Shown one piece after another: positions 12,186-53,230 of a stretch of 61,871 nt of DNA. Source of the stretch: Gemmatimonadales bacterium. Its GTDB lineage: Bacteria > Gemmatimonadota > Gemmatimonadetes > Gemmatimonadales > GWC2-71-9. The stretch covers positions 1-61,871 of the forward strand of contig JBDSIR010000063.1 of assembly GCA_039917855.1 (NCBI GenBank), read 5' to 3'. The notes under the pieces are model-generated. The model saw only the letters and a list, made by a program, of their open reading frames with translations. It ran no database searches and had not been told where the DNA came from. A program made the position numbers and the translations under genes. How positions within the stretch are numbered: the first letter of the stretch is position 1; every line of letters begins with the position of its first letter.

Positions 12186-12794
12186 ATGGCCTTCACGCTT
12201 CCTCCGCTCCCCTACGCACCTGACGCGCTCGAGCCGCACATCGATGCGCAGACGATGCAGATCCACCATGGCAAGCATCACAACGCCTACGTCACCAATC
12301 TCAACGCCGCGCTCGAGCCCCACGCCGCCCTGCAGTCGAAGAGCATCGAGGCGTTGATCGCCGACCTGAACGCCGTTCCCGAAGCGATCCGCACTGCCGT
12401 CCGCAACAACGGCGGCGGGCACTACAACCACACGCTGTTCTGGGATCTGATGATCCCGGGGGGCGCCAAGGAGCCGGCCGGCGCATTGGCCGCGGCGATC
12501 ACCAAGGCATTCGGCGGGATGGCGCCGTTCAAGGAGCAGTTCCAGAAGGCGGGGGCGACCCGCTTCGGATCGGGGTGGGCCTGGCTGGTCCGGGGCAAGG
12601 ATGGCGCCCTCGCCATCGAGAGCTCTCCGAACCAGGACTGCCCCCTGATGGACGGGAAGTTCCCGGTGATGGGGTGCGATGTCTGGGAGCACGCGTACTA
12701 CCTCAAGTACCAGAACCGCCGCCCCGACTACATGGCGGCGTGGTGGAACGTGCTCAACTGGGACACGGTGGCGAAGCGCTTCGCGGCAAAGTGA
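12186..12794 (+). CDS. sodA: Superoxide dismutase, Mn/Fe family (Mn-type signatures)
   Basis: [51 protein letters not shown]. Confidence 0.95.
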
Positions 12795-12877
12795 GCGGTG
12801 AGCGGTGAGAGGTGAGCGGGCCATCTCAGGAGATCTCTCCGGGTGGGCCCGCTCACCGCTTACCGCTCACTGGTCAC
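12791..12877. repeat. Inverted heptamer hairpin (GTGAGCG)x4 / (CGCTCAC)x4 starting at the sodA stop
   Basis: Direct reading; sodA TGA lies in unit 1. Confidence 0.9.
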
Positions 12878-12903
12878 CCCACAAGCTTCACGGAAGAGGG
12901 ATC

Positions 12904-13377
12904 ATGCCCGTCACCGTCTCCCTGCTCCCGACCGGGAGCACCGCGCCCGACTTCACCCTGCCTTCCACCTCGGGCGAGAAGGTCACCCTCTCGAGCTTTC
13001 GCGGGAAGAAGAATGTCCTGCTCGCCTTCTTCCCCTTCGCGTTCACCCGCACCTGCACCGCGGAGCTCTGTGACCTCTCGACCGACTACTCCCGATTTGC
13101 CTCGGCGGAGACCGTGGTGCTCCCCATCAGCTGCGATTTCGTCCCGGCCCTCAGGGCGTACAAGGCGAAGGAGCAGATGACAGTGGACCTCCTTGGCGAC
13201 GTCCGGCGCGACGTGTCGCGGGCGTACGGCGTGCTCCTCGAAGAACCGTTCGCGTCCGCCCGCGCCTACATCCTGATCGACAAGACGGGCACCATCCGCT
13301 GGCAGTTCGCCGAGGTCGAGCTGGGCCACAAGCGGAGCAACGGCGAACTGCTCGCGGAGCTCGCCAAGCTGGGCTAG
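12904..13377 (+). CDS. Peroxiredoxin (AhpE/AhpC-TSA family)
   Basis: [22 protein letters not shown] (PxxxTxxC), [14 protein letters not shown]. Confidence 0.9.
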
Positions 13378-14750
13378 TGCTCGAAGCCTATCCGCTCGAA
13401 CCGCCTCCGCCCCTCCCTCCGCTCGACGAGCGGTGGGAGGATCCTGGTTTCATGCTCGGATCGGGGCGTCGGGCCGGGTGGGGCGACGAGTGCGTCTGGT
13501 TCGGTGAGCTTCCGGTGCTGGAGCACCTCCGGGTGCTGGGTCCGCTCGAACTCCAGGACCGTCGCATCGTGGCGCTCGAGGAGCCGCTCTTCATCTGGGA
13601 GGTCGAGGCCGCCGGGGAGGTCCAGTTGATCTGCGACGTCGACCTCCGGGCCGAGCGGGTGCGCTACGAGCGCGCCAGCGACGGATCGCGGCTCTGGCTC
13701 GGGGGGGAGTGGCCCACCGACGAACTGCTGGTCTCCTGCTACGGTGGCGTGGTCGAAGTGACGGAGGAGGGATCGACGATCCAGCTGCGGGCCCGGGGGA
13801 TCGGGCGCGTCCGGCTGGTGGTGGTCGCGGCGCGGGACGAGGGCGATCGCGACCGCACCGTGCGGGCGCTGACCCGGAAAGGGGTCGCCGGGGTGGTGGC
13901 CCAGTACGTCCGGCACCTCGAAATGGTCGAGGCGCTGGGTGCGAAGCTCACCACCCCCGACCTCGAGTTGAACGACCAGTTCGCCTTCGACAAGCGCGAC
14001 CTCGACGGGACGCTGCGCGAATGGCCCGACGGTCACCGCGGCCTCCTCGAACCGCTGGAACACGGCTTCGCCCTGCTGGCCCTGGGCCTCCGGGAAGCCG
14101 TGCGCGACACGTTGCGCGGCCCGCTCGATGATCCCGAGGTGCTCCGGCTCTTCGCGGCGTATGCGGTCTGGGCCGGGACCGATGATTTCGTGCGCCGACA
14201 TTGGCCGCGGGTGACCCAGGCGCTGCGCGAAGCCGACCCCGGCCCTGAACGGGGGGACTTCCTGGCCGAGGAGGATCCCCCTGTGCCGATCGACGAGTAT
14301 CTGGATGCCGCCGCCGAACTGATCCCGGTGGCGGAGGCCCTCGGTGATCACGCGGCCGCGGCGATGCTCGAAGGGATGATCGCCGGTGTTGCGGTCGATC
14401 CGGTGTCGGGTCCGTGGCTCTGGCCCGACCCGGTGATGAAGCTCTGGGGGATCACGCCCGGCGCCCTGGAAGGCACGGTCACGCTGGCCCCTCAGCTTCC
14501 GGATGCTTGGCCCGAGATGACGCTCGAGCGACTCCGGATCGGTTCCACCTCGCTCGATGTACGGGTGCGACGTCGTCCCGGCGGGCTCGCCGTGAAATGT
14601 CGCGTGACCCGCGGTCCGCCGATCGTGGTCCAGCTCGCCCCCGAGCTCCCATTCCAGCCGACCGGCATCCTGCTGGACGGAGAGCAGCTGGCGGGGCCCA
14701 CCGTCCGTTTCACCGTCGAGAGCGAGGCCGAAGCGGTCTGGATCCGGTGA
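13377..14750 (+). CDS. Hypothetical protein, possibly derived from a glycoside hydrolase
   Basis: Coupled ORF; C-terminal WGITP..GTVTLAPQLPDAWPEMTLERLRIG resembles the tail of (alpha/alpha)6 hydrolases. Confidence 0.55.
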   Translation: MLEAYPLEPPPPLPPLDERWEDPGFMLGSGRRAGWGDECVWFGELPVLEHLRVLGPLELQDRRIVALEEPLFIWEVEAAGEVQLICDVDLRAERVRYERASDGSRLWLGGEWPTDELLVSCYGGVVEVTEEGSTIQLRARGIGRVRLVVVAARDEGDRDRTVRALTRKGVAGVVAQYVRHLEMVEALGAKLTTPDLELNDQFAFDKRDLDGTLREWPDGHRGLLEPLEHGFALLALGLREAVRDTLRGPLDDPEVLRLFAAYAVWAGTDDFVRRHWPRVTQALREADPGPERGDFLAEEDPPVPIDEYLDAAAELIPVAEALGDHAAAAMLEGMIAGVAVDPVSGPWLWPDPVMKLWGITPGALEGTVTLAPQLPDAWPEMTLERLRIGSTSLDVRVRRRPGGLAVKCRVTRGPPIVVQLAPELPFQPTGILLDGEQLAGPTVRFTVESEAEAVWIR

Positions 14751-14801
14751 TCCCGCGGGGCTCCCGGCGCTATACTTCGGCAACCCTTCCACCTCGATCC
14801 C

Positions 14802-15152
14802 GTGCCCCTCATTCGCTCGTTCGTCGCGGTCGTGCTCTGTGCGTTGACCGCCTGCCGCATCGAGACCTGCCCTCCCGCCGAGGTGGCGCGGATGCAGACC
14901 ACGGTCCAGGCTGCGGTGGCGGAGCACTATCGGGCCCGGAACGCGCTGGCGGGTGATTCGATCGAGTTGAGCGTGACCCGCCGGCAGATCGACGCGCATC
15001 GCGACCTCGCCTCGGTGTGGATCACCCTCCGGGAGCGTCGGGCGGTCTCCAGGGACAGCGTGCGTGACACCACGCGCTCCGAGCACCTGCTGCTGCGTCG
15101 CACGGGCGCCGGGTGGATCGTCCTGTCGGCCGCGACGGTGAGCGCTCCCTGA
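14802..15152 (+). CDS. Small putative lipoprotein (possible NTF2-like fold)
   Basis: Hydrophobic N-terminus with LTAC lipobox; C-terminal LLRRTGAGWIV. Confidence 0.6.
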   Translation: MPLIRSFVAVVLCALTACRIETCPPAEVARMQTTVQAAVAEHYRARNALAGDSIELSVTRRQIDAHRDLASVWITLRERRAVSRDSVRDTTRSEHLLLRRTGAGWIVLSAATVSAP

Positions 15153-17649: not shown

Positions 17650-18314
17650 AGGTCCTGGTCATCGAGGACGACCGCACGGTCGGTCAGTACGTGAAGCACG
17701 GGCTGGAGGAGCAGCGGTTCACCGCCGATCTCGTCGATGAGGGGCTGGAAGGGCTCCGGGTCGCCTCGACCGGGCACTATGACGTCATCGTGCTGGACCT
17801 GCGGCTGCCGGGCATGACGGGACTCGAGATCGTGCGGACCCTCCGAGACCGCGGCGTCACCACGCCGGTCCTGATGCTCACCGCCCAGGACTCGGTCGAG
17901 TTCAAGGTGGCCGGCCTCCGCGCCGGGGCCGATGACTACGTCACCAAGCCGTTCTCGTTCGAGGAGCTGCTGGCGCGGGTCGAGGCGCTGTCGCGCCGCC
18001 CCCGCGAGGTCGCGCCCCCCGTGCTTTCGCTCGACGACCTGACGCTCGACGTCGGCGCCCGTGAGGTGCGTCGCGGTGGCCAGCTCCTTGACCTGACGCC
18101 CAAGGAGTATCTCGTCCTCGAGTACCTGATGCGGCACCCGGGCCGGGTGATGAGCCGGACCCTCATCACCGAGTACGCCTGGGATTATCACTTCGACCCC
18201 GGCACCAACATCGTGGACGTCGTGATCAACCGGCTCCGCAAGAAGGTCGACGTGGGGACGGCGAAGAAGCTGATCCACACGGTGCGGGGGGTGGGATATG
18301 TAGTTAAGAGTTGA
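17646..18314 (+). CDS. OmpR-family response regulator (CusR/CopR-like)
   Basis: VLVIEDD, GADDYVTKPFSFEELLAR, winged helix NIVDVVINRLRKK, TVRGVGY. Confidence 0.95.
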   Translation: MKVLVIEDDRTVGQYVKHGLEEQRFTADLVDEGLEGLRVASTGHYDVIVLDLRLPGMTGLEIVRTLRDRGVTTPVLMLTAQDSVEFKVAGLRAGADDYVTKPFSFEELLARVEALSRRPREVAPPVLSLDDLTLDVGAREVRRGGQLLDLTPKEYLVLEYLMRHPGRVMSRTLITEYAWDYHFDPGTNIVDVVINRLRKKVDVGTAKKLIHTVRGVGYVVKS

Positions 18315-18383
18315 GAGTCTAGAGTCGGAACGGTGCCATGGTGGGAGCGACTCTAAACTCGGGACTCTAGACTCTCGACTCTC
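18307..18383. repeat. Inverted heptamer hairpin (AGAGTYN)/(GACTCT) containing the regulator's stop
   Basis: agagttg agagtct agagtcg ... cgactct aaactcg ggactct agactct cgactct. Confidence 0.75.
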
Positions 18384-23258: not shown

Positions 23259-24803
23259 ATGCGCCAACTCTTCAGCCGCAAGCCGATCGGCGACCTGCTG
23301 CCGGAGGCCGAGCACACCGGCCTCAAACGGTCGCTCAACAAGTGGCACCTCACAGCTCTGGGCGTGGGCGCCACCATCGGGGCGGGCATCTTTGCCACCA
23401 CCGGCACCGCCATCGTGGGCGACGCGCTCCGGCCCGGCGCCGGTCCGGCGATCGTACTCTCGTTCCTGGTCACGGCCGTGGCCTGCGGCTTCGCGGCGCT
23501 CTGCTACGCCGAGTTCGCCGCGATGGTGCCGATCTCCGGGTCGGCGTACACCTACAGCTATGCCGCCCTGGGTGAGCTGGTGGCGTGGATCATCGGATGG
23601 GACCTCATCATCGAGTACGCGGTCGGCAATATCGGCGTCGCCATCGGCTGGGCGGGGCATTTCCGCGAGCTGATGAGCCACCTCGGCGTCTCCATCCCCG
23701 CCTGGCTCGGCACCGACTATCGCTCGGCCTTCAACGCCGTGCGGGCGGTGGCGGACGGCGCTTCCGACCCGGGTACCTCCTACCTCGCCTCGGCGGTGGA
23801 GCTCGCCCCCCGGATCGCGGGGATCCCGATCATCTTCAACCTCCCCGCGTTCCTGGTGGTGATGGTGATCACGGTGGTGCTGGTGCGGGGCGTGCGCGAG
23901 TCGGCCAACGTCAACAACGCGATGGTGATCCTGAAGATCGGGCTCATCCTCTTTTTCATCGCGGTGGGCGTGTTCCTGATCAAGCCCGAGAACTGGACCG
24001 CACACAGCCTGGTGCCGGGGGGCAGCGGCTTCGCTCCCAACGGCTGGAAGGGGATCAGCGCCGGAGCGGCGATCATCTTCTTCAGCTACATCGGCTTCGA
24101 CGCGGTCAGCACCGCCTCCGAGGAGGCCAAGGACCCCGCCAAGGACATGCCGTTCGGCATCATCGCGAGCCTCATCATCTGCACCGTGCTCTATGTGGTG
24201 CTCTCGATCGTGATGACCGGGATGGCCCCCTGGACCCAGCTCGGTACCGCCGAGCCGATGATCACCGCGCTGCAGTTCTCGGGGGGCCCCGCAAAGTTGG
24301 TCGCGATCTCCCGCTTCGTGATCGCGCTCGGAGCGGTCATCGCGATGGGGAGCGTGCTCCTGGTGTTCCAGATGGGCCAGCCGCGCATCTTCTATTCGAT
24401 GGCGCGCGACGGCCTGCTCCCGCCCTTCATCGCCAAGATCCACCCCAAATACCGGACCCCCCACGTCGGTACGATCATCACCGGCCTCTTCGTCGGCACC
24501 TTCGCCGCGGTGGCCAACATCGCCGAAGTGGTGGACCTGACCAACATCGGGACCTTGTTCGCCTTCATTCTCGTCTCGTTCGGCGTGATCATCCTGCGCA
24601 TCAAGGAACCGGAACGGCACCGCCCGTTCAGGGTCTGGGGCTCGCCGTGGACGCCGATGATCTCCATCGCCAGCTGCTCCTACCTGATGTATCAGCTGCC
24701 GGGGATCACCTGGATCCGGTTCGGGATCTGGCTGGCGGCGGGACTGGTGATCTATTTCCTGTACGGGATCAGGCATTCGAAGCTGCGCAAGCCTACGACG
24801 TGA
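23259..24803 (+). CDS. APC-family amino acid permease
   Basis: LGVGATIGAGIF, CYAEFA, GSAYTY, FFSYIGFDAVST, RIFYSMARDGLLP. Confidence 0.95.
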   Translation: MRQLFSRKPIGDLLPEAEHTGLKRSLNKWHLTALGVGATIGAGIFATTGTAIVGDALRPGAGPAIVLSFLVTAVACGFAALCYAEFAAMVPISGSAYTYSYAALGELVAWIIGWDLIIEYAVGNIGVAIGWAGHFRELMSHLGVSIPAWLGTDYRSAFNAVRAVADGASDPGTSYLASAVELAPRIAGIPIIFNLPAFLVVMVITVVLVRGVRESANVNNAMVILKIGLILFFIAVGVFLIKPENWTAHSLVPGGSGFAPNGWKGISAGAAIIFFSYIGFDAVSTASEEAKDPAKDMPFGIIASLIICTVLYVVLSIVMTGMAPWTQLGTAEPMITALQFSGGPAKLVAISRFVIALGAVIAMGSVLLVFQMGQPRIFYSMARDGLLPPFIAKIHPKYRTPHVGTIITGLFVGTFAAVANIAEVVDLTNIGTLFAFILVSFGVIILRIKEPERHRPFRVWGSPWTPMISIASCSYLMYQLPGITWIRFGIWLAAGLVIYFLYGIRHSKLRKPTT

Positions 24804-24951
24804 GCGGTAAGCGGTAAGCGGTGAGCGGGCCGACCGAACGGAGCCGTCCCGAGTGCAACGAGGGACCTACTGGAATGATCCGGTAGGTCCCTCACTGCGT
24901 TCGGGACGGTTCCTGGTTTGCAGAACCCCCCGCTCACCGCTCACCGCTTAC
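24800..24951. repeat. Nested element: heptamer arms (GTRAGCG x4 / CGCTYAC x3) enclosing a REP-like palindrome
   Basis: Outer arms contain the stops of both convergent genes; inner gtcccgagtgcaacgagggacctac...gtaggtccctcactgcgttcgggac. Confidence 0.88.
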
Positions 24952-25847: not shown

Positions 25848-27409
25848 GCCGTCCGGGAGGGGGTTGGGGTCCGGGGAAAATAGCTCAAGATGATGCCGCT
25901 GAGCAGGGCCAGCGCAGTGCCCAGGGGGACGTACCAGGGCCAGGCGAGCCGCCCGACCGGCGCGAGCCAGTCAAGGGACAGCGATTCGGCGAGCACCTTG
26001 GCGAAGACCACCACCAGCATGACCGCGGTGGTGGTCGCGATCGCGCCGATCACGTCGCGTCCGGTGGCGCGCGGCCACCGACCGGCCAGGATGTAGGCCC
26101 CCAGCAGCCCGCCATACGTCACCGACGCGATCGACAGCGCCAACACCACGATCGGCGTGCCGCTCCGCGAGAAGAAATGGAAAGCGAGCGAGCCGCCGAT
26201 GAGCGCCAGGCCCCAGAAAATGGTGAATCCGCGGCCGATCTTGAAGAGGTGGTCCTGATCGGACTTGCCGGTCCAGGTGGCGTACAGGTCGTACGTGGTC
26301 GACGAGGCCAGGGCGCTGATCGCGGAGCTGTGCGAGCACATCGACGCCGCCAGGATCCCGGCCACGAGGAGACCCGTGAGCCCGACGGGGAAGTGCTGGA
26401 TCACGAACCGCGGGAAGATCTCGTCCGAGATGACTCCTTCGGGCGCGGCCCCCGCGGTCCAGATGGCCACGCCGACCGCCAGGAAGAGGGTGAACTGAAC
26501 GAAGACCGCGAATCCCGAACCCACCAGCGCGATCCGGCCATCCTTGAGCGAGCGGGTGGCCAGAAGGCGCTGCACGATCAGGTGATCGGTGCCGTGGCTC
26601 GCCGCCGAGAGGAGCGCCCCGCCGAGGAGGCCCGCCAGGAGGGTGTAAGGCGCGGTGAACGAAAGCTCGGGGCGGATGAGGCGCAGCTTCCCCGCCGCGC
26701 TCGCCGCGTCCCAGGCGGCCGACCATCCTCCCGCGAGCTGGACCGCGATGACCAGCGCGGTGACACCGCCCGTGACGTAGACCACGAGCTGGACCACGTC
26801 GGTCCACACCACCGCCTTGAGTCCGCCGTGCCAGGTGTAGACGACGGTAACGAGGCCGAGCACCATGATGGTCAGCGGGATATTCCAGCCGGTGAGGAGC
26901 GCCATCGGGATCGCACCCGCGAAGACCCGCACCGCGTCGCCCAGGAACCGGGTCACGATGAAGACGGCGGCGGCGAGTCGGCGGGTATGGGGGCCGAAGC
27001 GCGACTCGAGCCGCGCGTAGGCGGTCTCCTGGGTGTGCGCGAAATAGCCCGGCAGGAGCCATGCGGCCACCGCGATACGCCCCACGATGTACCCCATCAC
27101 CACCTGCAGGAAAGTGAGGTCGGTGCGGGCACCGAGCCCGGGGATCGAGACGACCGTGAGCGCCGAGGTCTCGGTGGCGACGATGGAGAGGAGCACCGCG
27201 AAGGCGGGGAGGTCGCGGGCACCGAGGAAGTAGTCGCCCGAGCTCTTCTGCGAACGTGCGGCCCAGGCCCCGATACCGAGGGTCAGAGCGACATAGACGA
27301 CGACGATCGCGAGGTCGAGGCTGTGCAGGGTGGTGTCCCGGGGGAGGATGCTGAAAAGTAAGAGGTGAGGGGTGAGGGGTAAGGGGTGAGGGGGCAGGGA
27401 AGCAGGCAT
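25844..27409 (-). CDS. Sodium:solute symporter (likely amino-sugar uptake); true start uncertain, possibly CTG 27328
   Basis: DYFLGAR, SIVATETSALT, GGLKAVVWTD, SHGTDHLIVQRLLA. Confidence 0.9.
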   Translation of the reverse strand: MPASLPPHPLPLTPHLLLFSILPRDTTLHSLDLAIVVVYVALTLGIGAWAARSQKSSGDYFLGARDLPAFAVLLSIVATETSALTVVSIPGLGARTDLTFLQVVMGYIVGRIAVAAWLLPGYFAHTQETAYARLESRFGPHTRRLAAAVFIVTRFLGDAVRVFAGAIPMALLTGWNIPLTIMVLGLVTVVYTWHGGLKAVVWTDVVQLVVYVTGGVTALVIAVQLAGGWSAAWDAASAAGKLRLIRPELSFTAPYTLLAGLLGGALLSAASHGTDHLIVQRLLATRSLKDGRIALVGSGFAVFVQFTLFLAVGVAIWTAGAAPEGVISDEIFPRFVIQHFPVGLTGLLVAGILAASMCSHSSAISALASSTTYDLYATWTGKSDQDHLFKIGRGFTIFWGLALIGGSLAFHFFSRSGTPIVVLALSIASVTYGGLLGAYILAGRWPRATGRDVIGAIATTTAVMLVVVFAKVLAESLSLDWLAPVGRLAWPWYVPLGTALALLSGIILSYFPRTPTPSRTA

Positions 27410-27649
27410 CACTGCTGGGAGAGTTTCGGTTTCAACTGGGAGGAACGAAGCAACGGATCAACGAATTGAAATGATGTGGTCGCCTGATCGGGATCGCGAC
27501 TACACACCACCAAAGTCGTTCTCCGTGCCTTCGTTGCTTCGTCTCTCCCGGTTGAGGCCAAGCCTGTCATCCATTGGGGTGCTGACCAACAAAAAAGGGG
27601 CCCCACTTGGGACCCCCTTACCCCATACCCCTCACCCCTCACCGCTCAC
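27358..27649. repeat. Nested element: outer heptamer arms (GTGAGGG x5 / CCCTCAC x5) enclosing an octamer-armed hairpin (27432-27555)
   Basis: Direct reading; stop of the A-type carrier gene lies in the right arm. Confidence 0.8.
27591..27618 (-). terminator. Rho-independent terminator downstream of the A-type carrier gene
   Basis: Minus strand AGGGGGTCCCAAGTGGGGCCCC-TTTTTT. Confidence 0.7.
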
Positions 27650-28135: not shown

Positions 28136-29293
28136 TTAGGGTGCCCTTTCGAGTCCTTCCACCACCCGATCGGCCACCCCACCGCGCACCGAGAGCTCCC
28201 CCCACTTCCCGTTGGTCCGGCTGGGGTGCACCCGGTTGGAGAGCACCACGATCACCAGTTCACGCGTGGGATCGATCCAGATCGAGGTGCCGGTGAATCC
28301 GGTGTGGCCGAAGCTTTCCGGCGAGAGCCGCATCCCAGCCGACGAATTCGGCGACGGGGTGTCCCACCCGAGCGCTCGGCTCGACCCGGGGACCACTTCC
28401 TGGCGGCGGCGGAATTCGGGGAGAGCGTTCCCGAGGAGGAACTCGCCGAACCGCACCATATCCAGCGCGTCGCTGAAGAGCCCGGCGTGTCCCGACACCC
28501 CGTCGAGCCGCGCGGCGTTCTCGTCGTGGACCTCGCCGACGAGCATTCGCCGCCGCCAGGCGGTGTCGAGCTCCGTCGGAGCGATGCGTCCGCGGCGCTC
28601 ACCCCGCGGGAGATAGCTCGTTGAGGTCAGACCGAGCGGACCGGTGACCCGTGCGGCGAAGAGCTCGTCGATCCGCTGGCCATACAAACCCTCGATGGCC
28701 TGCGTAAGAATGATGATGCCGAGGTCGCTGTAGACCATCCGGACGCCGGGGAGGGTGTCGAGCGGGGTCGTGTCGGCCAGCGCCATCGCGGATTCGCGGG
28801 AGTCGGCCTGTTGATAAAGGGGGCGCCATGCCGGCATCCCGCTCGAGTGGGTCAGGATGTGGCGGACGGTGACGCGATCCTTGTTGGAGCCCTGGAAGGC
28901 AGGAACGTAGCGCTGGAGGGGGGCTTCGAGGTCGAGCGTCCCCTCGCGCACCGCGTACATCGCGAGGGTGGTGAGGGCGGTGACCTTGGTGACCGACGCC
29001 ATGTCATAGAGCGTCAGCGAGTCGGGGCGGGCGGGGTCTTCTTCGCCCAGTCGGCCGGTGCCGTAGAACCAGCGGCGGCCGTGGGAACTGACGCCGATGA
29101 CGGCCCCGGGCGCGGCGCCGAGGTTGATGACCGAATCGAGGAAGGCGGCGGCAGACGCGAGCGGGGTGCCGACGGCTTCGTAGGCGTAGTTCGCGACGTG
29201 GTGCGTGTTGGGTATTGCGGGTTGGGTGTTCGGGGTACAAGAGCTCGGCACTACACAACACGCAACACTCAATACCCAACACGCGCCCTTCAC
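28136..29293 (-). CDS. Serine hydrolase, beta-lactamase fold (AmiE-like candidate)
   Basis: ASVTK (SxxK), ILTHSSG, YSDLG, GEVHDENA, GHAGLFS, FGHTGFTGTS; GTG 29293 overlaps the nagZ stop. Confidence 0.88.
   Translation of the reverse strand: MKGACWVLSVACCVVPSSCTPNTQPAIPNTHHVANYAYEAVGTPLASAAAFLDSVINLGAAPGAVIGVSSHGRRWFYGTGRLGEEDPARPDSLTLYDMASVTKVTALTTLAMYAVREGTLDLEAPLQRYVPAFQGSNKDRVTVRHILTHSSGMPAWRPLYQQADSRESAMALADTTPLDTLPGVRMVYSDLGIIILTQAIEGLYGQRIDELFAARVTGPLGLTSTSYLPRGERRGRIAPTELDTAWRRRMLVGEVHDENAARLDGVSGHAGLFSDALDMVRFGEFLLGNALPEFRRRQEVVPGSSRALGWDTPSPNSSAGMRLSPESFGHTGFTGTSIWIDPTRELVIVVLSNRVHPSRTNGKWGELSVRGGVADRVVEGLERAP
29198..29282. repeat. Inverted heptamer hairpin (GTGTTGG/CCAACAC) encoded in-frame in the hydrolase N-terminus
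   Basis: Five units per arm; encodes CWVLSVACCVV and NTQPAIPNTHH. Confidence 0.8.
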
Positions 29294-37449: not shown

Positions 37450-37453
<4 letters not shown>

Positions 37454-37504
37454 GCGGTAAGCGGTAAGCAGTGAGCGGGGGGCTCCGATACAGATCGGGG
37501 CCCC
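37450..37504. repeat. Heptamer array (GTAAGCG x3, GTGAGCG) starting at the hppA stop, followed by a short hairpin
   Basis: Direct reading; loop GGGGGGCTCCGAT is shared with the 53155 element. Confidence 0.85.
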
Positions 37505-37530
37505 TTCGCATCTGTTCCGCTCTCGCCGCC

Positions 37531-37690
37531 GACCTCACCCCCCGACCCCCTCTCGCTCCCTCACCTCACCCCCCGACCCCCTCTCCCTTGCGGGAGAGGG
37601 GGAAAAGCCCCGATGCACTCCCCCTCTCCCGTAAGGGAGAGGGGGCAGGGGGGGTGAGGTTGCAGGGGGAGGGGCCAGGGGAGGGGGCGA
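37531..37690. repeat. CCTCACCCCC..CCCCTCTCCC-N4-GGGAGAGGGG palindromic repeat cluster
   Basis: Two CCCCTCTCCC/GGGAGAGGGG hairpins inside an outer ACCTCACCCCCC/GGGGGGTGAGGT inversion. Confidence 0.8.
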
Positions 37691-39846: not shown

Positions 39847-39918
39847 GCCATCAGCCATCAGCCATCAGCCATCAGCCGATCGTTCCTCGCTGATAGCCGA
39901 TGGCCGATGGCCGATGGC
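39847..39918. repeat. Inverted heptamer hairpin (GCCATCA x4 / GCCGATG-like x4)
   Basis: Direct reading between E1 beta and E2. Confidence 0.85.
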
Positions 39919-39937
39919 CTGACTCCGGAACCCGACC

Positions 39938-41891: not shown

Positions 41892-42727
41892 CCGCTACCG
41901 TCGACCTGCACGTCCACTCCACGGCGTCCGACGGCACGCTCGCCCCCGCCGCGGTGGTCGATCGCATCAAGGCGGCCGGCCTCGCGGCGTTCGCCCTCAC
42001 CGATCACGATACGGTGGCCGGTCTCCCCGAGGCGCTCGCCGCCGGGGAACGAGTCGGCGTCCGGGTCATCACCGGCTGCGAGTTCTCCACCGGCGCCCCC
42101 TGGGGTGGAGAGATGCACGTCCTTGGGTATTTCCTCCCCGGCGACGATACGGTGGTCGAGGAGTTCCTGATCCTCCGCCGGACCGACAGGACCCTCCGCG
42201 CGGAGCGGATGGTGCAGAAGTTGAATGCCCAGGGCGTCGCACTCACGCTCGACGATGTCGCCGCGGTCGCGGGGGGAGGGGCGCTCGGACGCCCCCATGT
42301 GGCGCGCGCCCTGGTCGCCAAGGGGCACGTGCCGCACGCTCAGGGGGCGTTCGACCGGTGGCTCGGGCGCGGCCGCTCTGCCTATGTCGACAAGAAGCTC
42401 CCCACGTTTCGCGCCGTGGCCGAGCTGGTGCACCGGGCCGGCGGCGTGGTCTCGGCCGCCCATCTCAAGGATCGGGCCTCGCGCGGGATGCTCGAACAGC
42501 TCAAGGCGGACGGACTCGATGCGGTCGAGACGCGGCACCCCAGCCACGACCCCGACGTCCGCACTCGGCTCACCGAGTGGGCCATCACCCTCGACCTCGG
42601 CCGGAGCGGTGGCTCGGATTGGCACGGCGACAGCGAGGAGATGCGCCACGGGTCGCTGGGCAGCCAGGAGGTACCGATGGAGTGGGTGGCGGAGCTGGAG
42701 GCGCGGCGCGGGGGCCAACGAGCCTAG
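41888..42727 (+). CDS. PHP-domain metal-dependent phosphoesterase
   Basis: VDLHVHSTASDG, ALTDHDT, GCEFS, HVLGY, GRPHVA, GGSDWHG; start inferred at CTG 41888. Confidence 0.9.
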   Translation: MTATVDLHVHSTASDGTLAPAAVVDRIKAAGLAAFALTDHDTVAGLPEALAAGERVGVRVITGCEFSTGAPWGGEMHVLGYFLPGDDTVVEEFLILRRTDRTLRAERMVQKLNAQGVALTLDDVAAVAGGGALGRPHVARALVAKGHVPHAQGAFDRWLGRGRSAYVDKKLPTFRAVAELVHRAGGVVSAAHLKDRASRGMLEQLKADGLDAVETRHPSHDPDVRTRLTEWAITLDLGRSGGSDWHGDSEEMRHGSLGSQEVPMEWVAELEARRGGQRA

Positions 42728-42816
42728 CACCTGGCGCCTGGCGAGGCGGGGAAACGACTATCATCCTACGGGGGGACCCACCACAACCTCTCCAGGCTCC
42801 AGGCGCCAGGCGCCCC
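42722..42816. repeat. Inverted heptamer arms (GCCTGGC / CTCCAGG-CGCCAGG) from the PHP stop to the next ATG
   Basis: gcctagc acctggc gcctggc ... ctccagg ctccagg cgccagg. Confidence 0.65.
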
Positions 42817-43991: not shown

Positions 43992-43992
43992 G

Positions 43993-44721: not shown

Positions 44722-45473
44722 CCGAGACAAGCAGCGCCGCAGCGCCCCAGCGCCACACCGCCCTTGGAGACGTCGTCATCATCGGCGGCGGATGCTATGG
44801 CTCGTTCTACACCGGGCAGCTCCTCGATGGGAGCGCCCGGGGGCTGCTCACGTTCCGGCGTCTTCTGGTGGTCGACCGCGACCCCTCCTGCCAGGTGGCG
44901 CGCGAGAGGGTCGGTGTTCCCGGGGTCGTGCTCGTGACGGCGGAGTGGAGCGACTTTCTCGACGGTTACCTCGCCGGGCTCGAGGTCACGCCGGAGGATG
45001 TGATCGTGCCCACCCCGTTCATGCCGCACCTCTTCCGCGAGTGGCTCCTCCGGCAGGCGCGTGGTCGGTGGCCGGGGCGTGAACTCGGCGCGGGCCCGCT
45101 TCCGGGTGAGGTCGGCACGCCCTACGAGCGTCCCGGTGGTGACGGCGCTTCCTATCTCTCCTGGGCCGACTGGATCTGCCCTACCCATTGCACCGAACCG
45201 GCACTCTGCCCCGCCATCCGGGCACCGCGGACCTGGTCGATGTCCGAGGACCTCACCGCATTTGCCGGTCGATCCGGGACTTCCGGGCCGCTGCTGTTCG
45301 AGGTCCGCCACTTGGCGCACGGGGTCGGCGGCTTCACCACCCGCGAGGTCCTGGAGGCCGACCGCCGGCTCGCCGAGATCGGCGACCGCGGCCCCGCCAC
45401 GGTGGTGGTCTCGACGACCTCCCATTGCCACGCCGCAGCCGGGGTGATCCGCCTCGGCTCCCTGACGGGGTAG
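44718..45473 (+). CDS. Hypothetical Rossmann-like protein with a Cys/His cluster
   Basis: IIGGGCYG; CPTHCTEPALCP; SHCH; TTGA overlap. Confidence 0.75.
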   Translation: MTETSSAAAPQRHTALGDVVIIGGGCYGSFYTGQLLDGSARGLLTFRRLLVVDRDPSCQVARERVGVPGVVLVTAEWSDFLDGYLAGLEVTPEDVIVPTPFMPHLFREWLLRQARGRWPGRELGAGPLPGEVGTPYERPGGDGASYLSWADWICPTHCTEPALCPAIRAPRTWSMSEDLTAFAGRSGTSGPLLFEVRHLAHGVGGFTTREVLEADRRLAEIGDRGPATVVVSTTSHCHAAAGVIRLGSLTG

Positions 45474-47216: not shown

Positions 47217-47322
47217 GGGACCCCGCACCGGCTCCGCGGCAGTCCACCGCCCCAGCGCCCCAGCGCCTCAGCGGCCCGCCCTGTCAACGCTGCGGCTTTC
47301 CCGTCCCCCCCAGGTCGATGGG

Positions 47323-48588: not shown

Positions 48589-48590
48589 CC

Positions 48591-49478
48591 GTGCTCGGCC
48601 CCCTCGAGACCCACGCGCTCTGCGCGGTCCTGATCCTCCTCGATCAAGCCGCTCGCGCCCTTCGCATCCGCCTCCTCGGCGGCGCGCTGGGGCATCCCCT
48701 CCGTTTTCGCGATGCGTTCGTCACCAACGTCATCGGCGACGCGGCGTGCGCCGTGACCCCGCTCAGGATCGCAGGGGAACCGGCGCGGCTGGCATCGCTG
48801 CTCCGCTTCGGTGTCCCCGCCACGGCCAGCTTCGTCGCGATCGCCTTCGAGGTGATCACGATGTGGCCCGTGGTCATCACTTGCGCCCTGGTCCTCGGTA
48901 TCTGGTCGGCGCCGGAATGGATCCAGCAGACTGCCCCCGTCGTGGCGGCCGGACTCGCGCGGACCTGGGGATGGCTCGCCCTCGCGGCCGTCGTCAGCGC
49001 CCTGCTCTGGATCCTGGTCCGGCGCAGGGTGCACATCGCTCCGCGACTCATCCAACGTCCGTGGGGTCGGGTGCGGATCTACTGGCGCCGGATGCCGCGC
49101 GGAAAACTCATCGCTTCATCCGCCTTGGGCTTCGTCAATCTCGCCAGTCGGACGGCGATCCTGCCGGTGCTCATGACCCAGCTTCCCGATCCGCCGCCGC
49201 TCGGGCCCGCCATCCTCGGCTCCTTCGCGCTGCTCTACAGTCAGCTCGCCCTCCCGACGCCGTCAGGGGCGGGCGTGGTGGATCTCGGACTCTTGGCGGG
49301 GGCGGCAGGGAGCGCGGGAGAGCGCGGAGTCGAACTACTCATCTGGTGGCGGTTCTACACCACCTTCGTCGGAGTCGCGCTGGGGGGGTGGTTCGCGGTG
49401 CGGGAATTCGGATGGGGTGCGGTGCGGGGGGTGTTCAACTGGCGGATCGGGAGGTCACCAGTGACCAGTGACCAGTGA
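48591..49478 (+). CDS. Lysylphosphatidylglycerol synthase TM / flippase-like protein
   Basis: VTP.RIAGEP, PTPSGAGVVD, WWRFYT; multi-TM. Confidence 0.75.
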   Translation: MLGPLETHALCAVLILLDQAARALRIRLLGGALGHPLRFRDAFVTNVIGDAACAVTPLRIAGEPARLASLLRFGVPATASFVAIAFEVITMWPVVITCALVLGIWSAPEWIQQTAPVVAAGLARTWGWLALAAVVSALLWILVRRRVHIAPRLIQRPWGRVRIYWRRMPRGKLIASSALGFVNLASRTAILPVLMTQLPDPPPLGPAILGSFALLYSQLALPTPSGAGVVDLGLLAGAAGSAGERGVELLIWWRFYTTFVGVALGGWFAVREFGWGAVRGVFNWRIGRSPVTSDQ

Positions 49479-49539
49479 CCGGGCGTGCTGTTGGGATCTC
49501 CCTGTGGGGCCCGGTCACAGGTCACCGGTCACCGGTCAC
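49454..49539. repeat. Inverted heptamer hairpin (GTGACCA / CGGTCAC) containing the stops of both convergent genes
   Basis: Direct reading. Confidence 0.88.
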
Positions 49540-49856
49540 TTCGGTCCTGGCCCCATCCCGACCACCAGCACCGTCCGCTCCAGCGCGGCCTCGACGCCAT
49601 GCGGTTCACCCGCGGGACACCAGGCAATGGCCCCCGGTCCCACTTCGCGGGTCTCGGCGCCGACGGTGATTCTCGCCTTTCCTGACACCACAAGATAGAA
49701 TTTGTCCGCACCCGCGTGGGCATGGACCTTCTGGGATTGCCCCGGCTCGAGGCAATTGAGTCCGAGGAATATATGTTCCCCCCGCGCGAGGTCGACTTTG
49801 GCCATCTTGTCGGAGGCAAAGGTTGCCAGCGCTGCCGGATCGAAGAACTGGGTCAT
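49536..49856 (-). CDS. Cupin-domain protein
   Basis: LEPGQSQKVHAH..DKFY.V.SG, PAGEPHGV. Confidence 0.88.
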   Translation of the reverse strand: MTQFFDPAALATFASDKMAKVDLARGEHIFLGLNCLEPGQSQKVHAHAGADKFYLVVSGKARITVGAETREVGPGAIAWCPAGEPHGVEAALERTVLVVGMGPGPK

Positions 49857-49930
49857 TGGTCGTTGGTCCCTGGTCGTTGGATCGATGCGGGTGTGCACCC
49901 CCGCTCACCGCTCACCGCTTACCGTTCACC
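49851..49930. repeat. Two different heptamer arrays (GGTCGTT x4; CCGCTCA x4) filling a divergent intergenic region
   Basis: Each array abuts or contains a start codon. Confidence 0.8.
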
Positions 49931-49932
49931 CT

Positions 49933-51351
49933 ATGTCGACACGCATCGAGAAAGACCCGCTCGGCGAGAAGGCCGTCCCCGCCGAGGCCCTGTACGGGAT
50001 CCAGACCCTCCGCGCCGCCGAGAACTTCCCCATCTCGGGACTCCGGCCGCTGCCGGCGTTCGTCGATGCGATGATCTGGATCAAGCGTTCCGCCGCGCTC
50101 ACGCACAAGGAGACGGGACGCCTCGAGCCGAAGCTGGCCGACGCCATCGTCCAGGCCGCCGACGAGATCCTCGCCGGCAAGCACCGCGACCAGTTCATCG
50201 TCGATCCGTACCAGGCCGGCGCCGGCACCAGCCACAACATGAACTGTAACGAGGTGCTTGCCAACCGGGCCAACGAGATCCTCGGCACCGCGCGCGGCAG
50301 CTACGCGCCCGTGCATCCGAACGATCACGTCAACATGGCCCAGAGCACCAACGACACCATCCCCACTGCGATGCGGTTGGCGACGCTGGCGCTCTATCCC
50401 GCCCTGGTCGCCTCGATGGACCGGCTGGCGAAGGCCTTCCTGGCCAAGGGGAAGCAGTTCGACCACGTGATCAAATCGGGGCGCACCCACCTGCAGGACG
50501 CCACCCCGATCCGCCTCGGCCAGGAGTTCACGGCCTACGGCCACACCATCGCCCGGCACCGCCGCAAGGTGGATCAGGCCGCCGCGTATCTCCACGAGCT
50601 CGGCATCGGCGGCACCGCGGTGGGCACCGGCCTCAACGCCGAAGCGGCATATCCGGCGCTGATGGTGAAACACCTCAAGGCGATCACCAAGCTCGAACTC
50701 TCGGTCGGAGAGGACCGGGTGCAGATGATGCAGTCGATGGGAGACATCGCCTCCTTCAGCGGGGCGGTGCGCGGCTACGTCCTCGACCTCTGCAAGATCG
50801 CCGACGATCTCCGCCTCCTCGCCTCCGGTCCCCGGACCGGCATCGCCGAGATCGCCCTGCCGGCGGTGCAGCCGGGTTCGAGCATCATGCCGGGCAAGGT
50901 GAATCCCTCCATCGTCGAGATGGTGAACCAGGTCTGCTACCAGGCCATCGGCCTCGACACCACCATCGCGATGGCGGCCAAGGCGGGGGAGCTGGAACTC
51001 AACGTGATGATGCCGGTCATCACCCACAACGTGGTGCTGATGGTCACCATCCTGACCAATGCCGGCCGGATCTTCGCCGAGCGCGCCGTGGAGGGGATCG
51101 AGGCCGACGAGGCGATGTGCGCCCACTGGCTCGAACGGAGCCCCGCGCTGGTCACCGCGTTGGCACCCAAGATCGGCTATGCCGAGTCGGCCAAACTCGC
51201 CAAGGAGGCGATCGCGACCGGCCTTACAGTCAGGGAGCTCGTCACCAAGAAGGGGATCCTCAAGGGGAAGGAACTCGACGAGGTCCTCGACCTCCGCGCC
51301 ATGACCGAACTCGGCATCCCCGGCGGCAAGCCCCTTCCCGGTGGGGGCTGA
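49933..51351 (+). CDS. aspA: Aspartate ammonia-lyase / class II fumarase family
   Basis: YGIQT.RA.ENF, GAGTSHNMN.NE, AQSTND, GRTHLQDA, GSSIMPGKVNP. Confidence 0.88.
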   Translation: MSTRIEKDPLGEKAVPAEALYGIQTLRAAENFPISGLRPLPAFVDAMIWIKRSAALTHKETGRLEPKLADAIVQAADEILAGKHRDQFIVDPYQAGAGTSHNMNCNEVLANRANEILGTARGSYAPVHPNDHVNMAQSTNDTIPTAMRLATLALYPALVASMDRLAKAFLAKGKQFDHVIKSGRTHLQDATPIRLGQEFTAYGHTIARHRRKVDQAAAYLHELGIGGTAVGTGLNAEAAYPALMVKHLKAITKLELSVGEDRVQMMQSMGDIASFSGAVRGYVLDLCKIADDLRLLASGPRTGIAEIALPAVQPGSSIMPGKVNPSIVEMVNQVCYQAIGLDTTIAMAAKAGELELNVMMPVITHNVVLMVTILTNAGRIFAERAVEGIEADEAMCAHWLERSPALVTALAPKIGYAESAKLAKEAIATGLTVRELVTKKGILKGKELDEVLDLRAMTELGIPGGKPLPGGG

Positions 51352-51353
51352 TC

Positions 51354-51448
51354 GGGTGAAGGGTGAAGGGAGGAGGGTGGAGGGTGGAGGGTGCCGCTGG
51401 GAGAGAGTTCTCCCCCGGCAGCACCCTTCACCCACCACCCTCCACCCC
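51354..51448. repeat. Inverted heptamer hairpin (GGGTGRA x5 / CACCCTY x4)
   Basis: Direct reading after the aspA stop. Confidence 0.8.
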
Positions 51449-51497
51449 AAATAGCGACATCCTTGAATCCCTAAGCCTTAACTCCCATATTACCCCC

Positions 51498-51959
51498 ATG
51501 CGCGTAACCACCTGGACCGAGTACTCGCTCATCATCACGCTCCACCTCGCTCGGCGCGGCCGGACCGGGGGTGGCCCGGTGGCGGCCCGTGAGCTGGCCG
51601 AGTCGGAACGTCTCCCGGGAGACTACGTGGAGCAGATCCTCCTGCGCCTTCGCCGCGCCGGTCTGGTCGAGAGCGTGAGGGGGGCCAAGGGGGGGTATTT
51701 CCTGGCCAAGGACCCCGGCGAGATCTCCGTGCGTGATGTGATGGCGGCCTCCGAGCACCAGACCTTCGAGATGAACTGCGAACTCCACCCGGTCGACGCG
51801 GAGCGATGCGATCCGGGGAGTTCCTGCACCATCCGCCCGGTATGGCAGGCGCTGCAGAAGCGGGTCGACGACCTGCTCGAGGGGATCTCCTTGGCCGACC
51901 TGATGAAGGAACAAGGCGAGGTACAGGAGCTGGTGACGCTCGCGGCAGCCCGGACCTGA
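51498..51959 (+). CDS. Rrf2-family regulator with three Cys (IscR-like)
   Basis: YVEQILLRLRRAGLVESVRGAKGGY; C-x9-C-x5-C. Confidence 0.9.
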   Translation: MRVTTWTEYSLIITLHLARRGRTGGGPVAARELAESERLPGDYVEQILLRLRRAGLVESVRGAKGGYFLAKDPGEISVRDVMAASEHQTFEMNCELHPVDAERCDPGSSCTIRPVWQALQKRVDDLLEGISLADLMKEQGEVQELVTLAAART

Positions 51960-52017
51960 CCGACGCCTGATCGACCCACCGCCCGGCCCGCGCCGGGCGG
52001 TCTCATTTCCAGGACCG

Positions 52018-53151
52018 ATGACCGAACTCTCTCGCGACGAACTGCTGCGGTACAGCCGTCACCTGGTGCTTCCCGGGCTGGGCCTCGACGGCCAGCGGAA
52101 GCTCAAGGAGGCGCGCGTGCTCGTGATCGGCGCCGGCGGGCTCGGCGCACCGGCGGCGCTCTACCTCGCGGCCGCAGGGGTCGGCACGATCGGCTTGGTC
52201 GATCCCGATCTTGTCGACCTCACCAACCTTCAGCGCCAGATCATCCACGGCACCGCTGCCGTCGGCACGTCGAAGGTGGAGTCGGCCCGGGCCCGCCTCG
52301 CCGATCTGAATCCTCACGTCAATGTGGAGACGATACCGGCGCTCCTGACCAGCGCCAACGCGCGTGAACTCTGCCGTCGGTTCGACGTGATCATCGACGG
52401 TTCTGACAATTTCCCCACGCGCTACCTGGTCAACGACGCCTGCGTGATGGAGCACAAGCCGCTGGTCTACGGCAGCATCTTCCGGTTCGACGGCCAGGTC
52501 TCCCTCTTCGCGCCGGGCGGTCCCTGTTACCGCTGTCTCTTCGCCGATCCGCCCCCGGCGGGGCTGGTGCCCAACTGCGCCGAGGGTGGCGTGGTGGGTG
52601 CCTTGCCTGGGGTGGTCGGAAGCCTGCAGGCGCTCGAGGCGATCAAGCTGATCCTCGGGGCAGGGGAGTCGCTCGCCGGCAGGCTCCTTCTGTTCGACGG
52701 CCTCCGGATGACCTTCCGCGAGGTGACGCTCCGGAAGGACCCGGAGTGCCCGGTCTGCGGCGAACATCCGACGGTCACCGCGCTGATCGACTATGAGCGC
52801 TTCTGCGGGATGCCGACCGCGCGCGATCGGGCGGCGGCGGAGATCTCGATCCCGGAGTTCGGCGCGGCCCGTTCAGGACCGGACTCCCCGCTGGTGGTCG
52901 ATGTGCGCGAGGAGTGGGAGTGGGAGATCGGACACCTCGACGGAGCGGTGCACATCCCCCTCGGGGCGCTCCCCGCCCGACTGGGCGAGCTCGACACCCG
53001 CCGTGAGATCGTCACCCTCTGTCATCACGGGATGCGTTCGCTCCAGGCGCGCGACCTCCTGCTCGGCGCCGGTTTCGCGCAGGTGCGGAGCCTGGCCGGA
53101 GGGATCGACGCCTGGTCGGCGGAGGTGGATGGGACAGTGGCGAGGTACTGA
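52018..53151 (+). CDS. moeB: MoeB/ThiF adenylyltransferase fused to rhodanese (MoeZ-like)
   Basis: RYSRH, GAGGLG, TNLQRQ, DGSDNFPTRY, CYRC, CPVC, C-terminal CHHGMRS. Confidence 0.92.
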   Translation: MTELSRDELLRYSRHLVLPGLGLDGQRKLKEARVLVIGAGGLGAPAALYLAAAGVGTIGLVDPDLVDLTNLQRQIIHGTAAVGTSKVESARARLADLNPHVNVETIPALLTSANARELCRRFDVIIDGSDNFPTRYLVNDACVMEHKPLVYGSIFRFDGQVSLFAPGGPCYRCLFADPPPAGLVPNCAEGGVVGALPGVVGSLQALEAIKLILGAGESLAGRLLLFDGLRMTFREVTLRKDPECPVCGEHPTVTALIDYERFCGMPTARDRAAAEISIPEFGAARSGPDSPLVVDVREEWEWEIGHLDGAVHIPLGALPARLGELDTRREIVTLCHHGMRSLQARDLLLGAGFAQVRSLAGGIDAWSAEVDGTVARY

Positions 53152-53154
53152 TCG

Positions 53155-53230
53155 GTGAGCGGTGAGCGGTAAGCGGGGGGCTCCGATCTGCTCGGAACCC
53201 CCCGCTTACCGCTCACCGCTCACCGCTCAC
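53155..53230. repeat. Inverted heptamer hairpin (GTGAGCG x3 / CGCTCAC x4) between moeB and tRNA-Leu
   Basis: Near-perfect long stem with GGGGGGCTCCGA...TCGGAACCCCCC core. Confidence 0.9.

Follow-up and report, generated by a model that had tools for sequence, protein, structure and literature searches.

What are the long hairpins that stand at the ends of so many genes in a Gemmatimonadales genome, and why do their arms begin where reading frames stop? The question arises from one 61,871-nt contig (JBDSIR010000063.1 of assembly GCA_039917855.1; contig C63), the whole of which we call the window. Its intergenic spaces hold inverted arrays of degenerate 7-nt units, and a first-pass annotation had listed ten of them and read them as a gene-end system, in which repeated stop-bearing heptamers place stops in all three frames and are coupled to an RNA hairpin. 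We surveyed the whole of the metagenome-assembled genome (2.70 Mb in 162 contigs, 67% G+C) together with its relatives. The elements belong to a class of very long extragenic hairpins that extends over the genome and over the Gemmatimonadales as a lineage, and for which we establish how the hairpins are built, placed, and oriented, their period, their turnover between species, and their phyletic spread. As to their nature we favor, tentatively and with slightly less than even confidence, gene-end hairpins comparable to repetitive extragenic palindromes (REPs), with stems that would have grown by tandem duplication of 7/8-nt units up to the stop codon. The Gemmatimonadota abound in soil, yet their molecular genetics is almost unexplored, and this structure marks about a tenth of the gene ends in the present genome and is common to many genera.

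Tandem arrays were located with Tandem Repeats Finder (TRF) and by direct reading, and periods of 6 to 9 nt were compared. Period-7 arrays are present at all ten listed sites, and the genome-wide scan for tandem and inverted repeats finds arrays far above chance and wider in kind than had been described. Those of at least three copies number 551 at period 7 and 396 at period 8, against 128 at period 6 and 91 at period 9; the octamers, absent from the first-pass annotation, thus come close to the heptamers in number. Most of the arrays at these two periods are intergenic (470/593 at period 7 and 308/474 at period 8; 39/178 at period 6 and 50/160 at period 9). Arrays lying mostly within called genes amount to 139, 123, 166, and 110 for periods 6 to 9, and because these counts are alike, the excess of periods 7 and 8 is an intergenic one only. 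The arrays comprise 117 heptamer and 87 octamer unit types. GTGA, the motif common to several of the listed units, is only about the tenth commonest 4-mer in period-7 register here (reverse complements pooled), and arrays phased on GGTC are widespread too, so that we reject GTGA as a specially conserved motif.

Pairing of arrays is equally confined to these periods, with 139 inverted pairs of 7-mers and 77 of 8-mers, but 3 of 6-mers and 1 of 9-mers. A reverse-complement partner lies within 300 nt of 290 of the 593 heptamer and 173 of the 474 octamer arrays, whereas a control with reversed, not complemented, sequence returned 1 and 15 partners. After merging, this leaves 163 heptamer and 102 octamer hairpins, two sets without overlap; the former fall into 50 unit families, of which 28 are single hairpins. 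At the ten listed sites, the inverted partner passes our strict test (a score of at least 13 within 300 nt) in eight cases and is weak at 42722 (score 12), while at 37450 the 3' arm has decayed (partner score 7). Since 35 of 1067 heptamer and octamer arrays lie at most 100 nt, and 11 hairpins at most 300 nt, from a contig end, arrays probably break short-read assemblies, and their true number is likely higher.

All these hairpins follow one plan, namely a locus-specific, GC-rich apical hairpin set between two inverted unit arrays, with a median of four units per arm and, in the heptamer hairpins, an apical core with a median length of 30 nt. The median minimum free energy of the 243 hairpins folded is -71.5 kcal/mol. 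Eight window hairpins reach -41 to -78 kcal/mol (z -3.0 to -14.5), and for each of them none of 200 shuffles folds as well. GATC stands at or near the apex in 53 of 118 short heptamer cores (e.g., 12833-12840 and 53186-53189), where about 11 would be expected from shuffling and about 26 by an estimate from the genome's GATC density; this enrichment is real but modest.

The most general rule of the class, above stop content, is that the G-rich arm is the 5' arm. Among hairpins with unequal G and C, this holds for 119 of 129 heptamer hairpins (119 to 10) and for 56 of 65 octamer hairpins (56 to 9; the 65 being out of 67), and it is just as strict in units without a stop (132 to 4). Because the structure is a palindrome, the polarity is true on both strands. 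It is no general trait of the genome's hairpins, a possibility that we rejected as other short intergenic hairpins are G-first in 111 cases and C-first in 159. The two arms, on the other hand, behave as independently homogenized arrays, given that some hairpins show one A.C mismatch in every unit, that the lengths of the arms are weakly correlated (rho 0.33), and that arm identity hardly depends on register (0.859 mirrored, 0.845 one unit out of register). Mirrored unit variants as a signature of template switching were likewise rejected, being barely above the one-unit-shifted control.

Genes were called with our own codon-model caller, in which stops are independent of the choice of start. 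Measured against the available intergenic base pairs, heptamer hairpins are found 111 times between tandem genes (about 107 expected), 33 times between convergent genes (about 24), and 15 times between divergent genes (about 28). That they are gene-end structures anchored on stops, as first proposed, is borne out. Between tandem genes the median gap is 1 nt from stop to hairpin, compared with 14 nt from hairpin to next called start (85 vs 23 cases, sign test p=1.5e-9), and between convergent genes 55 of 66 hairpin sides lie within 10 nt of a stop. Units without stops, such as GTGCGAA, begin 1-10 nt past the stop and are equally tight. Even tRNA genes are trailed by hairpins or arrays: tRNA-Leu abuts the hairpin at 53149-53230, and a solo array comes after tRNA-Ala. 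In 76 of the 111 tandem cases, at most 35 nt separate the stem from the next called start (39 cases if the most downstream plausible start is taken), and with the next start so close behind, many hairpins stand inside operons; examples from the window are sodA-ahpC, E1beta-E2, and PHP-ahpC.

Orthologous sites tell how the arrays change over time. The sites compared are hppA, sodA, E1beta-E2, fumC-Rrf2, and ThiF-tRNA-Leu; up to five congeneric genomes were used, with protein identities of 68-97%. The position of the stop codon is identical in every congener at the five sites, and the apical core is recognizably conserved at hppA (GGGCTCCGG..CCGGGGCCC) and sodA (GGGCC..GATC..GGCCC). The units, however, are replaced: GTGAGCG here corresponds to GTGACCG in G008 and G002 and to GTGAACG in G003 and G007, and at E1beta-E2 the congeners carry GGTCGCR and AGCTRTC, with 8- and 9-mers elsewhere. 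At some sites the hairpin is missing altogether (fumC in G003 and G007, E1beta in G005). The units that dominate differ from genome to genome, and within one unit family of the present genome the cores are mostly unrelated. The suggestion that period and architecture are conserved rather than sequence therefore holds among congeners, with the reservation that the hairpin is not always shared. The gene stops themselves are ancestral, standing at the same position in species with other arrays.

Beyond the genus the distribution is patchy. In samples of 40-94 kb from six relatives, heptamer arrays have a density of 15-18 per 100 kb for G007, G013, and G014 and are absent from the samples of G015, G017, and G019. 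In G013 and G014, which represent two other genera, the arrays are inverted and nearly all G-first. The pattern (GTGANNN)x3 GTGA is present in 86 of 301 Gemmatimonadota genomes searched, a tally that includes one unpublished genome (G073), and is concentrated in three families of the window's order; (GGTCNNN)x3 GGTC is present in 52 of 201 Gemmatimonadales genomes searched.

How could such structures come about? In the reading that we favor, replication slippage or unequal exchange of 7-8-nt units would create and renew the arrays on the spot, at the foot of a gene-end hairpin that was already there. From this foot the stem would grow outward until it meets a coding constraint, the stop codon. 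Arrays would thus start at, or in register with, the ancestral stop, and many units would come to contain TGA, TAA, or TAG. Loops of about 7-8 nt escape MutS. Loss of mismatch repair as the cause of the instability was considered and rejected: one MutS_V match (which could be MutS2) and one MutL_C match give no sign of it. For heptamer repeats in general, PMC4679880 summarizes a proposal in which the polymerase slips with a footprint of about 7 nt.

Functionally, the hairpins would probably act in a REP-like manner, forming and protecting transcript 3' ends and insulating adjoining cistrons, in both directions where genes converge. They are probably not canonical U-tract terminators: at least five T within the next 10 nt follow only 30 of 530 hairpin ends, and a consensus scan over 20 kb of the window gave 8 U-tract terminator-like sites where 6.1 were expected. 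Because U-tracts are absent and many copies lie within operons, a role as efficient terminators seems unlikely. For the G-first polarity, two rationales may be offered as speculation. A C-rich arm on which Rho could load would emerge only once its G-rich partner is already there to sequester it (a Rho gene is present in the genome), or a pyrimidine-rich 3' arm would make a weak RNA:DNA hybrid that aids hairpin-driven release.

The central claim of the first-pass annotation, the all-frame stop, deserves closer attention. Its arithmetic is sound, since any stop-bearing unit of 7 or 8 nt repeated three times gives stops in all frames, and so are most of the observations behind it. The stop lies in the first unit, as checked by coordinates, for sodA, the OmpR-type regulator, the APC permease, BadF, the A-type carrier, hppA, PHP, and the cupin, and the LPG-synthase-like ORF (open reading frame) does read into its own array with ...RSPVTSDQ*. 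Genome-wide, 101 gene ends are faced by stop-bearing arms. At 37 of them the gene terminates on the in-phase stop of unit 1, at 6 on that of unit 2, and at 3 on that of unit 3; elsewhere the gene's stop overlaps the array start (18), lies at most 10 nt upstream (25) or farther upstream (9), or coincides with an out-of-phase triplet (3). Unit 1 is hence used by 37 of the 46 ORFs that end on an array stop, where a random frame would predict one third.

Does this amount to a selected gene-end system that, joined with an RNA hairpin, serves as a fail-safe for ribosomes which read through or have shifted frame? We regard this as unlikely, although part of the evidence speaks for it. Beyond the use of unit 1, heptamer hairpins between convergent genes nearly always bear stops (30/33, vs 53/111 between tandem and 8/15 between divergent genes), the stop-less families GTGCGAA, GGGTGGA, and GGGTCGT never occur there, and GTGA-phased heptamers recur across the phylum with the other three bases varying. 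Stop-bearing units also run at 1.4x a permutation on the coding strand (164 vs 115), but the opposite, non-coding sense shows the same 1.4x (61 vs 44). Stops are present in only 164 of 323 heptamer arms and 47 of 197 octamer arms, leaving about half of the former and three quarters of the latter without one. Between tandem genes, where one arm always faces a gene end, stop content is not above that between divergent genes (48% vs 53%). Nor are stop triplets better kept on arms that face gene ends (340/412 units, 82.5%) than on those that face gene starts (200/247, 81.0%; p=0.68). Furthermore, tRNA genes are trailed by hairpins too, the gene stops are ancestral and fixed in relatives with other units, and GTGA holds no privileged rank beside motifs such as GGTC.

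We therefore read the stops in all frames as mostly a by-product rather than the selected function. For a unit to reach across the stop codon, a stop triplet has to be part of it, and between convergent genes both feet of the stem are stop codons that pair with each other. A stem extended to the coding boundary would thus explain both the anchoring and the association with convergent genes without selection for a fail-safe, and a secondary benefit of all-frame stops would be compatible with it.

Critically speaking, several points weigh against REP-like hairpins grown locally by slippage. The strong tie of stop-bearing units to convergent genes, and the absence of stop-less families from them, could after all reflect selection for stops. 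Units are shared by dozens of loci (GTGCGAA by 24 hairpins, the GTGAGCG type by 27), which is hard to reconcile with purely local growth; shared units and species-specific repertoires need homogenization between loci, a trans-acting factor, or a seed context in common. The strict G-first polarity is not accounted for by slippage, and the sharp preference for periods 7 and 8 over 6 and 9 lacks an explanation. There is also no sign of RNA-level selection in the sense transcript: the sense strand folds more stably in 73 hairpins and the antisense strand in 76 (p=0.62), and an asymmetry of G.U against A.C pairs on the sense strand, looked for in the folds, was not found. Finally, the called start codons are uncertain.

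As a rival reading, the hairpins could be non-autonomous elements resembling miniature inverted-repeat transposable elements (MITEs) or REP doublets forming hairpins (REPINs), spread by a transposase or recombinase that targets stops or terminator hairpins. A few unit families do dominate each genome, the repertoire differs by species, and sites are gained, lost, and replaced between congeners; moreover, the same genome holds a true dispersed palindromic repeat of 148 nt with G-first arms, and nine matches to the Y1 transposase (PF01797). Against this, cores are mostly unrelated within a unit family and yet conserved at orthologous sites with different arrays, and more than half of the heptamer unit families (28/50) are single hairpins. 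None of the nine Y1 genes has a heptamer hairpin within 1.5 kb, and G003, G013, and G014 (97-100% completeness) carry arrays without any Y1_Tnp match, so that an association with REP-associated tyrosine transposases (RAYTs) was rejected and mobility as a whole is an improbable account. A dedicated mechanism, be it templated addition of repeats, hairpin-specific recombination, or a unit-specific trans factor, may build the arrays and keep them uniform, adding 7/8-nt steps to the outer end of the stem, always G-first, until the stop is reached. It would be compatible with features that simple slippage leaves unexplained (polarity, the 7/8 period, uniformity within a genome with replacement between species, and context-specific families), and still we think it quite improbable.

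Two further readings are very unlikely in our judgment. The arrays might be multimeric binding sites for a species-specific trans-acting protein or RNA that reads the 7/8-nt unit in a regulatory or packaging role, with co-evolution homogenizing the units. Uniformity within genomes, divergence between species, and the conservation of period and copy number (about four) fit such a factor, as do solo arrays that abut start codons; heptamer repeats close to start codons in Nostoc and Beggiatoaceae have been proposed to be regulatory (10.1101/2022.06.06.494920; PMC4679880). However, with 50 unit families among its heptamer hairpins and over 100 unit types among its arrays, this genome has far too many for a few factors, no candidate factor was identified, and a period of 7-8 nt does not hold successive sites on one face of the DNA helix. 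Alternatively, the arrays might have no function and be the by-product of a mutational bias of the lineage, toward slippage or template switching, that builds them wherever selection permits, with intergenic hairpins merely tolerating them. The restriction of the 7/8 excess to intergenic DNA, the lack of a sense-strand stability bias, the register-free pairing of the arms, and the patchy occurrence among genera would all suit this. What argues for constraint is the strict polarity, the tight anchoring at stops rather than starts, the fact that different species keep a hairpin at corresponding sites while its units turn over, and the context-specific families.

The individual hairpins and arrays of the window are collected in the table below. 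Pfam families were assigned to 29 of the 32 window ORFs submitted, and they back the earlier gene names (sodA, OmpR-type regulator, APC permease, BadF, A-type carrier, H+-PPase, PHP, cupin, and an LPG-synthase-like "flippase"). The plus-strand ORF at 25673-27361 (562 aa), which ends in an array stop, has no Pfam match and was rejected as spurious, a shadow ORF of high-GC DNA; antisense to it, on the minus strand, runs the real gene next to the 27358 array, which encodes an SSF symporter (25844-27412).

Table. Hairpins and solo arrays of the window, with the span of the paired arms where the strict partner test was passed.
Position	Type	Units and core	Fold (kcal/mol; z)	Strict-test span	Neighboring genes and remarks
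3839..3868 (+)	Solo array	CGTGCTG x4.3			6 nt past tRNA-Ala (3761-3833); followed by a small hairpin
12790..12878	Hairpin	GTGAGCG x4, core GGGCC..GAGATCTC..GGGCCC, CGCTCAC x4	-73.4; -10.1	12790-12878	sodA (stop TGA 12792-12794, unit 1) / AhpC/TSA gene (start 12904)
18307..18382	Hairpin	AGAGTTG/AGAGTCT ... GACTCTA	-40.9; -4.7	18307-18382	3' of OmpR-type response regulator (stop 18312-18314, within array)
24800..24951	Hairpin	GTRAGCG arms; second palindromic repeat nested in core (24829-24929)		24803-24951	Convergent: APC permease (stop 24801-24803) / BadF-type ATPase (minus, stop 24948-24950)
27358..27649	Composite hairpin	5' arm GTGAGGG-type (27358-27399); 214-nt lower-GC core; 3' arm CCCCTCA (27614-27649)		27364-27649	A-type Fe-S carrier (minus, stop 27646-27648, within 3' arm)
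29203..29284	Hairpin	GGGTRTT ... CAACACG			Adjoins GH3 gene (minus, stop 29290-29292); absent from the first-pass list
37450..37530	Array, 3' arm decayed	GTAAGCG x4, core GGGGGGCTCCGAT..ATCGGGGCCCC	-48.4; -5.8 (around core)		Starts in hppA stop (TAA 37451-37453)
39847..39919	Hairpin, intra-operon	GCCATCA x4.4 / GATGGCC x4; one A.C mismatch per unit	-45.5; -7.6	39847-39919	E1-beta (stop 39839-39841) / E2 (start 39938)
42722..42814	Weaker hairpin	GCCTGGC ... CCAGGCG	-47.2; -3.0		PHP-domain gene (stop TAG 42725-42727) / AhpC/TSA gene (ATG 42817, 2 nt past stem)
49454..49539	Hairpin	GTGACCA x3.4 / CGGTCAC x4	-56.3; -4.9	49457-49539	Convergent: LPG-synthase-like ORF (stop 49476-49478, two units in) / cupin (minus, stop 49536-49538)
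49851..49930	Two unrelated solo arrays	GGTCGTT x4.3 and CCGCTCA x4.3			Divergent cupin/fumC spacer; without partners
51354..51447	Hairpin	GGGTGAA/GGGTGGA x5.7 ... CACCCNC	-71; -6.5	51354-51447	fumC (stop 51349-51351) / promoter-like TTGAAT-N17/18-CATATT of Rrf2 gene
53149..53230	Hairpin	GTGAGCG x3-4, core GGGGGGCTCCGATCTGCTCGGAACCCCCC	-77.7; -14.5	53149-53230	ThiF-family gene (stop 53149-53151) / 3' end of tRNA-Leu (minus, 53238-53321)

Some details of the window stand apart from the hairpins proper. Each of the two solo arrays at 49851-49930 abuts a start codon and is C-rich in the sense of the gene that it precedes. Solo octamer arrays lie at 44731-44762, 47244-47277, 53952-53981, and 58111-58142 (GCAGCGCC, CCAGCGCC, CCGCCCAT, and TCAGCGCC). 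Arrays of 7/8-nt units are also seen in apparently real coding sequence, namely at 40539-40569 and 40310-40339 (E2 acyltransferase), 4023-4047 (amidase), 53952-53981 (Amidase_3), and 58111-58142; they are placed in inter-domain linkers or just past predicted N-terminal regions, and a change by one unit shifts the frame. The promoter-like element TTGAAT-N17/18-CATATT downstream of the fumC hairpin (window 51455-51500; orthologous loci L123-L127) is kept in six congeneric genomes and lies only 7-9 nt upstream of the Rrf2 ATG, a spacing that suggests a leaderless or near-leaderless Rrf2 mRNA.

The genome also holds repeats of other kinds. A dispersed palindromic repeat of about 148 nt occurs in the window at 6895-7050, 11752-11905, and 11955-12105, with a conserved core and terminal inverted repeats TCATTCACCACGGAG...; its arms consist of CACGGAG sub-repeats of about 10 nt, G-rich arm first, and 46 blastn alignments of at least 100 nt (both strands counted) correspond to an estimated 25 or so loci. 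It looks like a true MITE, unlike the heptamer hairpins. A second palindromic repeat (..GTCCCGAG..GAGGGACCTAC..GTAGGTCCCTC..; 24829-24929) is nested in the apex of several array hairpins; its 11-mer occurs 41x in the genome and the related GTCATCCCGAG motif 116x. Downstream of the hppA hairpin (37520-37660), a C-rich 31-nt direct repeat (x2.2) is followed by CCCTCTCC..GGAGAGGG palindromes, with similar ones on contigs C6, C9, and C11. The nine Y1 matches are located on contigs C113, C9, C41, C137 (two), C17, C20, C5, and C116, and the one at C17:6809-7132 sits amid short GC-rich, REP-like hairpins (C17:6675-9134) that are distinct from the heptamer hairpins.

The wider significance is both biological and practical. 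Hairpins of this kind are probably central to how Gemmatimonadota transcripts end or survive; U-tract terminators are not above chance in the 20 kb of the window scanned. They also offer a natural test of concerted evolution, being dispersed, microsatellite-like arrays with a fixed period, copy number, polarity, and position. On the practical side, the arrays create spurious long ORFs (such as the one at 25673-27361), may break assemblies, and will mislead terminator predictors. If functional, they would provide ready-made bidirectional insulators for high-GC hosts, and if a dedicated mechanism should prove true, the Gemmatimonadales would possess a previously unknown, actively maintained form of gene-boundary punctuation.

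How, then, does this class compare with known systems? Of the window, only two tRNAs reach the gathering score of an Rfam covariance model, and the hairpins match none. Intrinsic terminators, among them hairpins without a U-tract that have been proposed for high-GC bacteria, are similar in that a GC-rich hairpin stands directly 3' of genes, so placed that it could act in both directions where genes converge, and the fumC hairpin lies just before the next promoter; the hairpins described here differ in lacking a U-tract and in lying, in many cases, at most about 35 nt from the next start. Mycobacterial RNA polymerase is reported to need a U-tract (PMC3993855), and hairpins alone may therefore not terminate. 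MITEs, with terminal inverted repeats, near-identical dispersed copies, and target-site duplications, differ in that internal sequence is conserved among copies, which is not so for the heptamer hairpins.

Closer relatives in form are found among simple repeats. Short tandemly repeated repetitive (STRR) sequences, in the strict sense, are those of heterocystous cyanobacteria. Like these and the long simple sequence repeats (LSSRs) of 5-11 nt described by Mrazek and co-workers, the arrays here are tandem heptamers, mostly intergenic, with several unit families per genome, and their abundance (the arrays of at least three copies, their many unit types, and the intergenic majority given above) places them among long-unit repeats. 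They belong to another phylum than the strict STRR sequences, though, and octamers are co-dominant; inverted-pair hairpins, stop anchoring, and G-first polarity are, as far as we searched, no part of those descriptions. Among long units heptamers are the commonest class, with polymerase slippage proposed as their origin, again as summarized in PMC4679880. In the same source (MacGregor 2015), the TAACTGA repeats of marine Beggiatoaceae are described as giving stops in all three frames, so that an array can reach no farther into an ORF than its last few bases; that heptamer arrays have this property is thus already in print. There, a single unit forms direct repeats, mostly just upstream of starts and with one inverted case, whereas here many units form inverted pairs that start at stop codons.

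REPs, bacterial interspersed mosaic elements (BIMEs), and REPINs come closest in position, as they too are imperfect extragenic palindromes at gene 3' ends and between the genes of operons, in hundreds of copies per genome. REP elements protect mRNA 3' ends, and by analogy the hairpins here may do the same. They are unlike REPs and REPINs in their stems, which are 2-3 times longer and made of tandem 7/8-nt units, in their strict G-first polarity, and in that copies share the unit alone and not the apex, so that whole palindromes do not form families. The literature that we searched, which excludes the original STRR and LSSR papers, holds no prior description of stop-anchored inverted arrays of 7/8-mers, in the Gemmatimonadota or elsewhere. 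The hairpins of the Gemmatimonadales thus seem to form an undescribed class that combines the position of REP elements with the unit arrays of STRR sequences and LSSRs.

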